In this document: positions 1,508 to 6,270 of the stretch, one piece after another
Layout of the letters: each line of letters opens with the position of its first letter
Position numbering within the stretch: position 1 is the stretch's first letter
Program-made: the position numbers and the translations under genes
Virus record (IMG/VR): IMGVR_UViG_2778261462_000002
Coordinates: 1-6,270 of that record
Direction: 5' to 3' (one strand)
Source of the DNA: a virus
Taxonomy: Duplodnaviria > Heunggongvirae > Uroviricota > Caudoviricetes
DNA length: 6,270 nucleotides
The notes under the pieces: model-generated
What the model was told of the DNA's origin: nothing
What the model saw: only the letters and a program-made list of their open reading frames with translations
The model's database searches: none

Positions 1508-1897
1508 ATGGGCTTCCCTTCTCCTGCGGCGGATTATGTTGAAAGCCGAATTTCTCTTGATCAGCAACTAATCAGGCATCCATCAGCAACCTACTTCATG
1601 CGGGCGGCAGACAGCCATCACCGTGAGGGAATATTGCAGGGTGCTTTGCTGGTGGTTGATTCCTCGCTTACTCCGGTTGATGGTTCGCTGCTTGTCTGCG
1701 CTATGGAGGGTGAATATCGCATAAAGAGATACCGAAAGTATCCGCGCCAGCACCTGGAGGATTTAAGCACCGGGAAGAAAGAGGCGTTACCAGTAGATGA
1801 CGATGGTTACACGGGGAGTAATGCTGTTTTTGGTGTGATCACTCATGTCATCAATGATGTCCGAAGTGGGGAATTTGATGATTGTCCAGTGATTTAA
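1508..1897 (+). CDS. humD: HumD-like UmuD' analogue (S24 peptidase, LexA-like C-terminal domain) lacking the cleavable N-terminal arm.
   Basis: GAGG 9 nt upstream of the ATG, and an in-frame TAA at 1499-1501 prevents any N-terminal extension. The protein starts MGFPSPAADYVE, matching UmuD from Gly25 onward (UmuD ...QCGFPSPAADYVE...). A Ser (AADSHH) and a Lys (RIKRYRK) are retained at dyad-equivalent positions; VFGVITHV matches UmuD VFGVVIHV. Confidence 0.85.
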   Translation: MGFPSPAADYVESRISLDQQLIRHPSATYFMRAADSHHREGILQGALLVVDSSLTPVDGSLLVCAMEGEYRIKRYRKYPRQHLEDLSTGKKEALPVDDDGYTGSNAVFGVITHVINDVRSGEFDDCPVI

Positions 1898-1940
1898 GCT
1901 GCAAAGTGCTGGTGCTTTATGCCTGTGAAGTTTACAATTG

Positions 1941-1960
1941 TGTGCACATAACGAGTACAC
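1941..1960. promoter_or_regulatory. Candidate Phd/Doc operator: perfect palindrome TGTGCACA (1941-1948) plus GTACAC half-site (1955-1960), just upstream of phd.
   Basis: Palindromic elements lie between a TTTACA -35-like hexamer (1931-1936) and the phd SD GAGG (1961-1964). Phd-family antitoxins autoregulate through palindromic operators. Confidence 0.4.
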
Positions 1961-1969
1961 GAGGTGTTT

Positions 1970-2191
1970 ATGCAATCCATTAACTTCCGTACCGCGCGTG
2001 GCAACCTTTCTGAAGTGCTCAACAATGTTGAGGCCGGGGAAGAGGTTGAAATCACCCGCAGAGGCCGTGAGCCAGCAGTAATTGTCAGCAAGGCTACTTT
2101 CGAAGCCTACAAAAAAGCGGCGCTGGATGCTGAATTTGCATCCCTGTTTGACACCCTGGACTCCACCAACAAGGAACTGGTTAACCGATAA
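1970..2191 (+). CDS. phd: Phd antitoxin (Phd/YefM family), 73 aa.
   Basis: ATG at 1970 with GAGG 5 nt upstream; the ORF-track GTG at 1964 is probably not the real start. [73 protein letters not shown] matches P1 Phd as I recall it. Its TAA overlaps the doc ATG (TAATG). Confidence 0.9.
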
Positions 2192-2571
2192 TGAGGCATA
2201 TATCACCGGAAGAACTGATAGCGCTTCATGATGCGAATATAAGCCGCTACGGCGGCCTGCCGGGAATGTCAGATCCGGGCAGGGCAGAGGCCATTATCGG
2301 GAGAGTCCAGGCCAGAGTTGTGTACGAAGAGATCACCGACCTTTTCGAAGTCTCCGCCACCTACCTGGTGGCTACGGCGAGAGGGCATATATTCAATGAT
2401 GCCAATAAGCGTACCGCGCTAAACAGTGCGCTGCTATTTCTACGCCGTAACGGTATACAGGTATATGATTCTCCCGTGCTGGTGGAACTTGCGGTGGGGG
2501 CCGCAACTGGTGAAATCCCCGTATCTTCAGTAGCGGAAAAACTACGTGAATTATTTGGTCCCAATATTTGA
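2191..2571 (+). CDS. doc: Doc toxin (Fic-fold kinase, death-on-curing), 126 aa.
   Basis: Fic/Doc motif HIFNDANKR (HxFx[DN][AG]NKR) is present; the N-terminus [22 protein letters not shown] matches P1 Doc from memory; translationally coupled to phd. Confidence 0.92.
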
Positions 2572-3468: not shown

Positions 3469-3963
3469 TTATAACTTTTCGTACTTAAGCTGTGAACGCT
3501 TAATTTCAAAGCGACCTTCCGATGTGCTACCAAAGCCACCAGCACCTCGTTCTGTTTCATCGAGTTCATCAACTTCGACCAGCGAGACTTGTTCCACACG
3601 CTCAAAAATGCCTTGCATGACAGCCATTCCAGGCTTGAGGCAAACGCCTTCACCGCCGGGATCAGTAATCAATTTTGCCATGATTTCACCGCGATAATCG
3701 GAGTCGATAATTCCTACGCAGTTAGCCAGGCGCGTATGTTTTTTGCAGCCCAATCCGGATCGCGGATAGAGTTTCAGACACCAGCCGGGCGGGATCTCCA
3801 TAGCCAGTCCGGTATACACCCACCAGCTTGAGGAAATTGCACCATTGCTATCGACGCATGGTGTTATTTCAACAGCCTCAAAATCCATTGCTGCCGATCC
3901 TGCGGTGGCATAGAACGGCAGTTTTGCACCAGGATGCAGGCGCTTCACTTTTACGTTAATCAT
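3469..3963 (-). CDS. dut: dUTP diphosphatase (trimeric dUTPase), 164 aa.
   Basis: Start at the ATG at 3963 (MINVKVKRLHPGAKLPFYATAGS). dUTPase motifs present: PRSGLG, GIIDSDYRGE, RGAGGFGSTS. The N-terminus aligns with E. coli Dut (..KEFPLPTYATSGSAGLDL..). The start overlaps the upstream gene's stop by 8 nt (ATGATTAA). Confidence 0.85.
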   Translation of the reverse strand: MINVKVKRLHPGAKLPFYATAGSAAMDFEAVEITPCVDSNGAISSSWWVYTGLAMEIPPGWCLKLYPRSGLGCKKHTRLANCVGIIDSDYRGEIMAKLITDPGGEGVCLKPGMAVMQGIFERVEQVSLVEVDELDETERGAGGFGSTSEGRFEIKRSQLKYEKL

Positions 3964-4447
3964 GCTTCTTTGCTCTTTTGGTGAAGGTGTAAATTCGACG
4001 TTTAATATGCGGGGCAGTCGGTACGGATACGTTTGTGGATTCGATAATGCCTTGCTCTTCAAGAGAGCGAACGGCACGCAGGAACTGAGACGCATCGCCG
4101 CCACCGGACAGCCAGAATTTACGGGCGTAAATGCTGCCGTTACGGATAATTTCAGCAACGACACGAGACTGGGTTTGTGTTTCACGATAGGCAAACAGTT
4201 GCCGGGCTTCTTCCGGCGTAATAGCCAGTTGATAGCCTTTCCCCTTATGGGCGCGAATAAAACCAAACGACACCAGGTGTTTTAGTTCCCTGCGCGTAGT
4301 CTCATAACCGTATTCCTGTATCTGGAGATTGAGATCGGCGGGCTTTAGCCATGCTTCCGGCGACTCAGTAAGAAGCGCCAGCAACTTACCGGATAGCTCA
4401 GGGGAGGAAGACGGGTAACAGTTAAGAGATGGGTAATAGTGTTTCAT
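3956..4447 (-). CDS. Hypothetical protein Y, 163 aa, possible tandem winged-helix DNA-binding protein.
   Basis: ATG at 4447 with AAGGGGG SD 6-7 nt upstream; 4-nt ATGA overlap with Z's stop. Segments ETTRRELKHLVSFGFIRAHKGKGYQLA and SQFLRAVRSLEEQGIIES look like wHTH recognition regions; this is a composition-level call only. Confidence 0.55.
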   Translation of the reverse strand: MKHYYPSLNCYPSSSPELSGKLLALLTESPEAWLKPADLNLQIQEYGYETTRRELKHLVSFGFIRAHKGKGYQLAITPEEARQLFAYRETQTQSRVVAEIIRNGSIYARKFWLSGGGDASQFLRAVRSLEEQGIIESTNVSVPTAPHIKRRIYTFTKRAKKHD

Positions 4448-4860: not shown

Positions 4861-5889
4861 TCATGAATCCATGAGGCGGCTATTGGCACCTGCTGTCACA
4901 CCGCCACGACGAAGATAACGCATCAGTGTTTCGGGCTTCTTCCATGTACCTTCCTGCATAATTTCAACCAAAGACACCTGTTTTTCAGCCATATCTATGG
5001 CGGCACCAACACGCGCACTGTGGCCTGTCCACGTCCGGTAACGGCCTTTATTGGGGGTGGCATCACTCTTACCCAGCAGCGCCCAGGCGTCACTGAAAAT
5101 CTTCTCCATCGCGGGCGCGGTTAATGGCGTGGTGGTGATCCGCGCTTTGTTGCTCCGGTGTACTGGCGGGAAAAGTATCGCATCCGGGTGATCACGTAGT
5201 CCGGACGCGTCCAGCCAGTCATTGAGAACCGCAGTTGTCCGGCGGGAGAGCACCTTATCAAGTCCGGCGGCGGTCGTGATGGTTTTGGTGTGGGATACGT
5301 GAAGCGTTACAGTGTCACCAGTCTGTTCCAGATCGCGAACACGCACGCGGGACATTTCAGCCATACGCAACAGGGTATTGTAGGCCAGGAACAGAAAAGC
5401 CCGGTTGCGCAGATCCACCAGCCTGTCAGAGCGGGAGAGCAGCACGTCGAGCAGTTTCAGGTCATCCCAGCGCAGGGGCACTGCCTGGCCTGTGCGTTCG
5501 CCTTTTTCGGTTGCAGCTTCGCGCCGGATGCGCCGCATCGCCAGGGATACGCTTTTGTCATCAGAGAGTTGCGGCAGTCCGCATTGTGACAACAGCATAT
5601 TGAGCATGGCGTAATGCTTTTCAATGGTGGTTGAAGCCAGATCCGCATCATGCAGTTGAAGCAGGTATTCGCGGGCAGCTTCCGGGGAGATCGGAAACCA
5701 CGCAAGACCACGAGCGTGGCACCATCGCGCCCAGGAGTGAAAGACCAGGCGCAGATCGCGCAGTGTATTAGGTGAGTAAGCGCCCTGGTCATTAAGGAAC
5801 TGCATGAAATTTTTGGCGGCTTCCTGGTACTCAGCACCAATATCACGAAGAAACATGCCAGAATTACCGGAGATAATAAGTTTACTCAT
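4861..5889 (-). CDS. dre: Cre-family tyrosine site-specific recombinase, Dre-like, 342 aa, with the catalytic set intact.
   Basis: ATG at 5889 with AGGTGA SD. Aligns along its length with P1 Cre as I recall it: SVSLAMRRIRRE vs AVSLVMRRIRKE; DLRNRAFLFLAYNTLLRMAE vs DIRNLAFLGIAYNTLLRIAE; HTKT vs RTKT; WTGHSARVGAAIDMA vs WSGHSARVGAARDMA; and the C-terminal W...MRYLR carrying the Tyr nucleophile. A rox-like site lies 152 bp upstream. Confidence 0.88.
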   Translation of the reverse strand: MSKLIISGNSGMFLRDIGAEYQEAAKNFMQFLNDQGAYSPNTLRDLRLVFHSWARWCHARGLAWFPISPEAAREYLLQLHDADLASTTIEKHYAMLNMLLSQCGLPQLSDDKSVSLAMRRIRREAATEKGERTGQAVPLRWDDLKLLDVLLSRSDRLVDLRNRAFLFLAYNTLLRMAEMSRVRVRDLEQTGDTVTLHVSHTKTITTAAGLDKVLSRRTTAVLNDWLDASGLRDHPDAILFPPVHRSNKARITTTPLTAPAMEKIFSDAWALLGKSDATPNKGRYRTWTGHSARVGAAIDMAEKQVSLVEIMQEGTWKKPETLMRYLRRGGVTAGANSRLMDS

Positions 5890-6041
5890 GTAATCATTTC
5901 ACCTCTATAAATTGGTGTCGCTACGCGAAAAAACAAAAAATGACAGGCTAGTTATCCGTGAGAATTTAAAATTTAAGCCCTTGATTCGAACCATGACTTT
6001 TTGAGCCTGTCAATACTGATCGTTTGATCATTATTATATAC

Positions 6042-6073
6042 TAACTTTAAATAATGCCAATTATCTAAAGTTA
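6042..6073. other. rox-like recombination target: TAACTTTAAATAAT-GCCA-ATTATCTAAAGTTA (14-bp inverted arms, 4-bp asymmetric spacer).
   Basis: Arms match as inverted repeats at 13 of 14 positions (A vs G at arm position 9). The sequence differs from rox as I remember it (TAACTTTAAATAATGCCAATTATTTAAAGTTA) only at 6065, C for T. Flanking C6041/G6074 extend the palindrome. It sits upstream of the Cre-family gene, as loxP does for cre. Confidence 0.7.
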
Positions 6074-6143
6074 GAAGGGGAAAAATTTTTTTTTGATACA
6101 ACGGATCAAGTGAACAAAAAAGAAACCGTTTGATAAGCGGGAT

Positions 6144-6157
6144 GGCACTGTTGCAAA
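6144..6157 (+). repeat. IS26 left terminal inverted repeat, GGCACTGTTGCAAA.
   Basis: Exact 14-bp IS26/IS6-family terminal IR as I recall it, located 63 bp before the transposase ATG. Confidence 0.85.
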
Positions 6158-6206
6158 TAGTCGGTGGTGATAAACTTATCATCCCCTTTTGCTGATGGAG
6201 CTGCAC

Positions 6207-6270
6207 ATGAACCCATTCAAAGGCCGGCATTTTCAGCGTGACATCATTCTGTGGGCCGTACGCTGGTACT
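6207..6270 (+). CDS. tnpA: IS26 transposase Tnp26 (DDE transposase, IS6 family), N-terminal 21 codons only (3'-partial).
   Basis: Translation MNPFKGRHFQRDIILWAVRWY is the IS26 Tnp N-terminus as I recall it. Confidence 0.9.
   Translation, partial: MNPFKGRHFQRDIILWAVRWY

Follow-up and report, generated by a model that had tools for sequence, protein, structure and literature searches.

The dre gene, the rox site and their genomic context

The window (the whole 6,270-nt stretch of DNA analysed here) carries a tyrosine recombinase gene, a recombination site upstream of it, and the left end of an insertion sequence. The features are as follows.

4861..5889, minus strand: dre, a 342-aa Cre-type tyrosine recombinase ORF with an ATG start, the 'W' clade ortholog of D6 Dre
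6042..6073: rox, 14-4-14, 32 bp, 31/32 positions as in D6 rox, single copy in the window
6042..6055: dre-proximal rox arm, same as the canonical arm
6056..6059: asymmetric 4-bp rox spacer, GCCA on the plus strand and TGGC in the orientation of dre, canonical
6060..6073: dre-distal rox arm with the sole substitution, C6065 on the plus strand
6033..6060, minus strand: putative sigma-70-like promoter match TTGGCA-16-TATAAT directed toward dre, 11/12 in a consensus scan
6144..6270, plus strand: left end of IS26, with the terminal inverted repeat GGCACTGTTGCAAA at 6144-6157 and the tnpA start at 6207

The Dre/rox system of Escherichia phage D6 was reportedly described by Sauer and McDermott in 2004. 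The tblastn search of phage records showed that D6 Dre has 89.8% identity to the window Dre, with all 342 residues covered, and that the Cre proteins of P1 and P7 have approximately 42%. Pfam annotated Phage_integrase (PF00589, 59.5 bits, cut-off 27.1) and an N-terminal SAM-like domain, Phage_int_SAM_1 (PF02899, 28.2 bits, cut-off 22.3). Cre structures matched residues 16-341 with an E-value of 1.6e-73; a search for a solved Dre structure in which to place the base contact found only Cre and an engineered Cre (Tre). The catalytic set R175, E178, K202, H290, R293, W316, and Y325 was complete, and in a three-way alignment these residues corresponded to R173, E176, K201, H289, R292, W315, and Y324 of Cre. 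The initial annotation had described a 342-aa recombinase with all the catalytic landmarks of Cre and had assigned it to a Dre/rox system, not to Cre/loxP. Both statements hold, the seven catalytic residues being aligned to Cre and both the protein and the site being far nearer to those of D6.

According to two sources (PMC4957104; PMC7438526), Cre residues K43, R259, and G263 discriminate rox from loxP. The window Dre has R44, P259, and K263 at the equivalent positions, identical to D6 Dre. A total of 35 substitutions separate the two Dre proteins, and 0/35 lie at the checked positions aligned to Cre DNA-contact or specificity residues (K43, M44, Q90, R259, E262, G263, and E266). At the nucleotide level, the window dre is 79.8% identical to D6 dre (dS 1.33, dN 0.069, dN/dS 0.05), and the two genes are old orthologs under strong constraint. 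When the phage collection was searched by megablast with the dre-rox region, no match was obtained; D6 is only approximately 80% identical as DNA, and the search in protein mode did recover it.

The rox site reads TAACTTTAAATAAT GCCA ATTATcTAAAGTTA on the plus strand, with C at 6065, and TAACTTTAgATAAT TGGC ATTATTTAAAGTTA in the orientation of dre. In this orientation, C6065 corresponds to G in place of A at arm position 9 on the dre-distal side (hereafter G9; the canonical allele is A9). In GenBank AY753669, which holds the immC region of phage D6, the misc_recomb feature at 4909-4940 is TAACTTTAAATAATTGGCATTATTTAAAGTTA, annotated as "region of crossover (rox) site for Dre recombinase". The canonical rox sequence is also present in published primers (PMC4957104 supplement; PMC4777119). 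The rox sequence used in the initial annotation, from which the figure of 31/32 came, agrees with the site annotated in AY753669. The 14-4-14 palindrome that it placed 152 bp upstream is present at 6042-6073, and the single change at 6065 that it took to make the arms unequal is the only difference from the annotated rox. The same allele was found in relatives.

The repeat finder placed a pair of 15-nt inverted arms at 6041-6055 and 6060-6074, with 93% complementarity and a 4-nt gap, that is, the 14-4-14 site plus one further complementary C/G pair outside it. The site lies upstream of dre, at 152 bp (5890-6041) from the start codon. This spacing was kept in nearly all relatives whose Dre has at least 86% identity; the few exceptions have 151 bp. 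When up to 3 mismatches were allowed, rox occurred once in the window and in 0/200 dinucleotide-preserving shuffles. The flanks are only approximately 70% identical, whereas the rox arms differ at position 9 alone; the other arm positions were invariant among the 33 loci ascertained via protein.

P1 Cre/loxP resembles the window system in fold family, catalytic set, genomic role, and outer arm bases (TAACTT), and in the placement of the site just upstream of the recombinase gene, beside the plasmid-prophage immunity region. The two systems differ in the recombinase (42% identity), in the arm triplet (CGT in loxP and TAA in rox, TAG in the G9 arm of the window), in the residues at Cre positions 43, 259, and 263 (K, R, and G in Cre; R, P, and K in the window Dre), and in the spacer, which is asymmetric in both, with 8 bp in loxP and 4 bp in the window.

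The ORFs of the window included members of the Ead/Ea22-like protein, S24 peptidase, Phd, Doc, and dUTPase families. The genes follow the D6 arrangement (phd-doc, dut, two small ORFs, dre, rox), and the order doc, isaA-like, dut, orf116, orf117, dre, rox is common to the window, MF356679, and pK91. The window and D6 (AY753669, MF356679) thus share the recombinase length of 342 aa, the catalytic residues, the 14-4-14 site with TGGC, the 152-bp spacing, and the gene order downstream of dre, whereas the 35 amino-acid substitutions, the nucleotide divergence of dre, and G9 set the window apart. Beyond rox, D6 and the complete D6-like plasmids carry the gene of a 345-aa c1 repressor, followed by the pac genes. 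Where D6 has c1, the distal flank of the window is of a different haplotype and is cut by IS26.

The homology between the window and its relatives ended at 6143 for every relative. IS26 directly adjoins the distal flank and lies 70 bp from rox. The transposase from 6207 translates to MNPFKGRHFQRDIILWAVRWY, and matching records annotate it as an IS26 family transposase. The exact rox-IS26 junction was sought in PLSDB plasmids and complete E. coli genomes, and no record contained it. Near relatives of the window dre clade are often found in D6-like prophage fragments within resistance plasmids (IncFIB or IncHI1B), such as pK91 of Salmonella Typhi (IncFIB, qnrS1) and pQnrS1_005237 of E. coli. In pFUJ80155-1, dre and rox are flanked by two IS26 copies, one of which truncates c1 at 234 bp from rox. 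Since IS26 lies so close to rox, the window module may be a remnant in a resistance plasmid and not part of a working phage-plasmid. Origin from a laboratory construct was also considered, and it was ruled out by the native D6-like backbone and the 10% divergence from laboratory Dre.

Distribution of the G9 allele

The rox sites were collected from IMG/VR via protein, from IMG/VR via a degenerate rox pattern, and from metagenome contigs via a degenerate rox pattern. The IMG/VR pattern matches all lay on contigs also encoding Dre (31/31); approximately 10 metagenome pattern matches that had no Dre homolog in the sequence examined were excluded from the counts. All loci were oriented by tblastn, and 49 distinct ones had a Dre with at least 86% identity to that of the window. 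G9 was present in 14 of them.

Larger collections were searched by allele-specific megablast, validated locally, with two queries that both carry the TGGC spacer. The alignment cannot seed across the variant base, and each query therefore recovers its own allele only. Among sites with the TGGC spacer, G9 and canonical A9 were found 28 and 110 times in PLSDB plasmids and 28 and 94 times in complete E. coli genomes, so that G9 makes up approximately 20–23% of such sites in the two collections. The E. coli genomes had one copy per genome for either allele. The PLSDB plasmids with G9 came from Escherichia (24), Shigella (2), and Salmonella (2), and 26/28 were typed as non-mobilizable. Those listed were mostly 78–97 kb, and some were apparently complete D6-like plasmids of approximately 92 kb. 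The plasmid pTB423 (91.8 kb) carries pacA, terminase, a c1-like gene, rox(G9), and a dre whose product is 100% identical to D6 Dre.

With so many carriers, the exact G9 allele is a widespread standing polymorphism and can be taken neither for a private mutation nor for an error of sequencing. A natural polymorphism tolerated by the recombinase was one of three meanings proposed for the change in the initial annotation, and it is the best supported of them, with 28 PLSDB plasmids and 28 E. coli genomes carrying the allele.

The second proposal took the change as the marker of a distinct Dre subtype with altered specificity; in the form considered here, recognition of DNA by this subtype would have co-evolved with its site. 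The window Dre is in a separate clade, differing from D6 Dre by 35 substitutions (89.8% identity), and the altered base is within the triplet that separates rox from loxP, as this proposal would have it. The alleles were distributed over the Dre clades as follows.

Window-type Dre clade (at least 97% identical to the window): G9 6, A9 5
D6-type Dre clade (at least 96% identical to D6 Dre): G9 8, A9 21
94%-type Dre clade: G9 0, A9 6

G9 adjoins a Dre 100% identical to D6 Dre in several loci (L010, L017, L084, L107, and L112). Conversely, the Dre of pQnrS1_005237 (L111) is 100% identical to that of the window, yet its site has A9. From rox through dre, L111 and the window had 0 differences over 1,181 bp; the rox of L111 carries A9 plus two central changes. 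Only one arm of the window site is changed, and the same Dre must therefore bind the canonical arm too. The substitutions between the window and D6 proteins also miss all checked positions aligned to Cre contacts. Within the reach of sequence comparison, altered specificity is excluded, and we regard a co-evolved subtype as extremely improbable. The window Dre belongs to a separate clade approximately 10% diverged from D6 Dre, and the mismatch does not mark this clade.

The DNA beside the distal arm sorted into four haplotypes (A–D), with the following counts.

Distal-flank haplotype A (D6 type): G9 0, A9 21
Distal-flank haplotype B: G9 9, A9 1
Distal-flank haplotype C: G9 0, A9 8
Distal-flank haplotype D (that of the window): G9 5, A9 5

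G9 is inherited with the distal flanking DNA, and it is best read as linked to the c1-side module.

Possible effects of the base at arm position 9

The triplet that distinguishes the arms is TAA in rox and CGT in loxP, and position 9 is its third base in the loxP frame (PMC4957104). An effect on affinity is therefore plausible. In a molecular dynamics model of Dre on rox, as given in the available text of PMC7438526, the bases neighbouring position 9 contact R43 and P259, and that text reports no direct hydrogen bond for the A12/T64 pair. The correspondence of position 9 to A12/T64 was mapped in this analysis and not by that source.

More distant relatives also vary at this position. Loci with recombinases of 43–57% identity had symmetric T9/T9 or C9/C9 sites; these sites were matches to a degenerate pattern that fixes every other outer-arm base. 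The rox-pattern scan of one genome per species returned two loci only. The first was a Rosenbergiella locus with C9 and T9 arms and a distant Dre relative (43.6% identity). The second, in a Clostridia MAG, was an AT-rich palindrome with no Dre homolog nearby and was taken as a chance match. The Panto/pox system of Pantoea sp. aB (Karimova et al. 2016) has arms nearly identical to those of rox, and the two systems cross-recombine; Panto is approximately 52% identical to Dre (published), and the pox spacer and outermost arm base differ. Like the window rox, native pox has a natural asymmetry at the arm position homologous to G9, A vs. T, which was symmetrised before testing (PMC4957104). Asymmetry and variability at position 9 recur naturally in this family, and the symmetric T9/T9 and C9/C9 sites hint that the base is read to some extent.

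The third proposal for the change was that it weakens dimer resolution. In a mild form, G9 would reduce Dre binding at the distal arm and lower the efficiency of multimer resolution, and it would persist if RecA-independent resolution were only partly needed or if phd-doc or partition compensated. The location in the specificity triplet and the symmetric changes in distant relatives, which suggest that the base is read, are in keeping with such a cost, and phd-doc is present in the same window. Against it stand the share of G9 among TGGC-spacer sites in two large collections, its association with two flank haplotypes and two Dre clades, and its presence in full-size plasmids of E. coli, E. fergusonii, Shigella, and Salmonella. 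Dre is also experimentally tolerant of half-site mismatches: it recombines pox and also lox8 and lox11, with 2 and 4 half-site mismatches, respectively (PMC10250229), and rox and pox are each recombined by both Dre and Panto (PMC4957104). We consider a mildly deleterious effect unlikely on balance. A strong weakening of resolution is unlikely because the allele is so widespread. A literature search for tests of Dre activity on G9 arms found none; published rox mutagenesis covered the spacer and adjacent bases only, and clones in which the repeats had mutated were not kept (PMC4777119).

The asymmetry of the arms could also be functional in itself, by biasing the order of cleavage or by tuning the occupancy of Dre over a promoter embedded in rox and thereby the autoregulation of dre. 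The TTGGCA-16-TATAAT match shares sequence with both the spacer and the proximal arm. Its -35 hexamer consists of the rox spacer plus one base on either side, and the TATAAT beside the proximal arm is conserved across all Dre clades. This element may act as a promoter of dre. In 55 loci, G9 occurred in the distal arm only, with 0 cases in the proximal arm. The element is a consensus match only, however, and the scan gave 2 promoter-like matches in the region vs. 1.7 expected. The spacer variants TAGT and TGGA, which would damage the -35 hexamer, are also common, and both A9 and G9 occur on haplotype D in a neutral-looking way. A functional asymmetry therefore seems a remote prospect, less probable than a mild cost of G9.

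The best explanation, which we hold with good though not full confidence, is a natural Dre/rox module on the backbone of a D6-like (P1-related) phage-plasmid, in which G9 is a tolerated polymorphism. A Dre that uses canonical rox appears to tolerate G9.

Possible module exchange at rox and the predicted role of the system

Haplotype B is joined to D6-type dre (e.g., L010) and to window-type dre (L006). When B or non-B flanks were combined with window-type or D6-type dre, all four combinations were seen, so the sequences left and right of rox have been reassorted by recombination. L006 and L010 were 93% identical to the left of rox (1 kb) and 79% identical to the right (1.2 kb). L006 and L005 showed the opposite pattern, with 71% identity to the left and 97% to the right. 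The haplotype change falls between the base immediately left and the base immediately right of rox.

A switch inside rox fits a crossover in the spacer, which predicts the observed mosaic, since neither arm is parted from its flank. The loxP site of P1 is a classical recombination hot spot, and the mosaic at rox matches this behaviour. Indirectly, the mosaic suggests that sites with G9 engage in exchange. It may also have arisen by homologous recombination inside the conserved 32 bp, instead of by a crossover made by Dre.

By homology to Cre/loxP and to the characterised Dre of D6, each 14-bp rox arm would be bound by one Dre monomer, and two rox sites with four monomers would form the synapse. 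Tyr325 would cleave in or beside the TGGC central region, and strand exchange would proceed via a Holliday junction. With a single rox in each replicon, plasmid multimers would be resolved to monomers, and terminally redundant phage DNA would be circularised after infection. D6-like plasmids in Salmonella have been annotated with a role in multimer resolution and cyclization (PMC6799933). By analogy with P1 Cre/loxP, multimer resolution and cyclization of phage DNA are most likely the function of the window module as well, and its G9 site would probably be active in recombination.

The locus itself is ordinary. It is an approximately 90%-identical ortholog of the well-characterised Dre/rox system with an essentially canonical site, and it has little consequence for basic biology. 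The population-level diversity of rox centres and the position of rox as a module junction are leads of more interest. In the Dre clade of the window, the central-region variants were TGGC, TAGT, TAGC, and TGGA together with G19; GGGG was found once, in the D6 clade. G9 and the central variants beside intact Dre genes are candidates for studies of half-site tolerance and for heterospecific rox sites of use in genome engineering.

The Dre/rox remnants beside IS26 in resistance plasmids indicate that multidrug-resistance plasmids are incorporating parts of D6-like prophages, and there Dre/rox could act as a multimer-resolution system. We tentatively speculate, as a possibility that we rate below even, that natural rox is a structured polymorphic system in which the site is a junction of module exchange, G9 marks the distal module, and the centres form heterospecific classes. 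If this is true, modules on the immunity side (c1/pac) and on the dre side would be exchanged between D6-like elements at rox, and the centre classes would limit which co-resident elements co-integrate or exchange.

Rox-like sites beside dre and its relatives

The centre of rox varies naturally beside intact Dre genes, and TGGC, the canonical centre, occurs alongside TAGT, TAGC, TGGA, and GGGG. The region concerned is as follows (L numbers denote loci collected for the comparison of rox sites; L111 is pQnrS1_005237 of E. coli).

6054–6061: central region of rox, with variation among L005, L075, L082, L088, L104, L109, L111, L027, and L036.

The majority of these variants lie within the Dre clade of the window, and in the TGGA variant the proximal arm also has G as its first base. 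Published changes to the rox centre can abolish compatibility with the wild-type site (PMC4777119), and for this reason the natural variants may represent heterospecific classes.

Dre relatives with only 43–57% identity were found at L003 (Rosenbergiella collisarenosi), L085, L093, L096, L097, L092, and L038/L039/L083. The arms of their sites equal those of rox except at arm position 9 (T or C), an agreement that is partly by construction because the search pattern fixed the remaining outer-arm positions; their centre also differs. The degenerate rox pattern also matched AT-rich palindromes at L004 (a Clostridia MAG), L071, L078, L103, and L108, and no Dre homolog was found in the DNA examined at these five loci. 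Chance resemblance within AT-rich sequence probably accounts for them.

Promoter-like sequence overlapping rox

The elements concerned are as follows.

6033–6060 (−): promoter-like TTGGCA-16-TATAAT directed toward dre, score 11/12.
6013–6008 (−): second TTGACA.
6018–6021 and 6026–6029: two GATC sites.

The −35 hexamer of the promoter-like sequence is made up of the rox spacer and the single bases that flank it, and the TATAAT immediately beyond the proximal arm is kept in every Dre clade. This suggests that dre could be autoregulated through binding of Dre. The second TTGACA and the two GATC sites are reminiscent of the regulatory region of P1 cre, in which Dam sites are annotated.

Other genes in the window

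1508–2571 (+): humD/umuD-like S24 peptidase gene and, after it, a phd-doc toxin–antitoxin pair.
3469–4266 (−): ORF with a dUTPase domain (residues 146–248 of 265), called mechanically.

The phd-doc pair is likewise present in P1 and D6. The dUTPase ORF is much extended at its N terminus, and the extension runs into the ORF at 3956–4447; dut is annotated as 164 aa in relatives, and the true start is therefore probably internal.

Flanks of rox and the c1 side

Unrelated left-flank and right-flank lineages switch at the 32-bp rox (window 6042–6073 and flanks; L006, L010, L005, and L111), and all four pairings are present. Between the window and pQnrS1_005237 there are 0 differences across 1,181 bp right of rox, on the dre side; rox itself holds 3, and the 70 bp on its left hold several others.

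6144–6270 (+): left end of IS26, 70 bp from rox.

This IS26 is placed between rox and the position occupied by the c1 repressor gene in relatives. The breakpoints in the rox–c1 stretch differ among other relatives: IS26 lies 234 bp from rox in pFUJ80155-1, where it truncates c1, and pQnrS1_005237 has a different junction at approximately 155 bp. The c1 side of rox seems to be recurrently disrupted in resistance plasmids.
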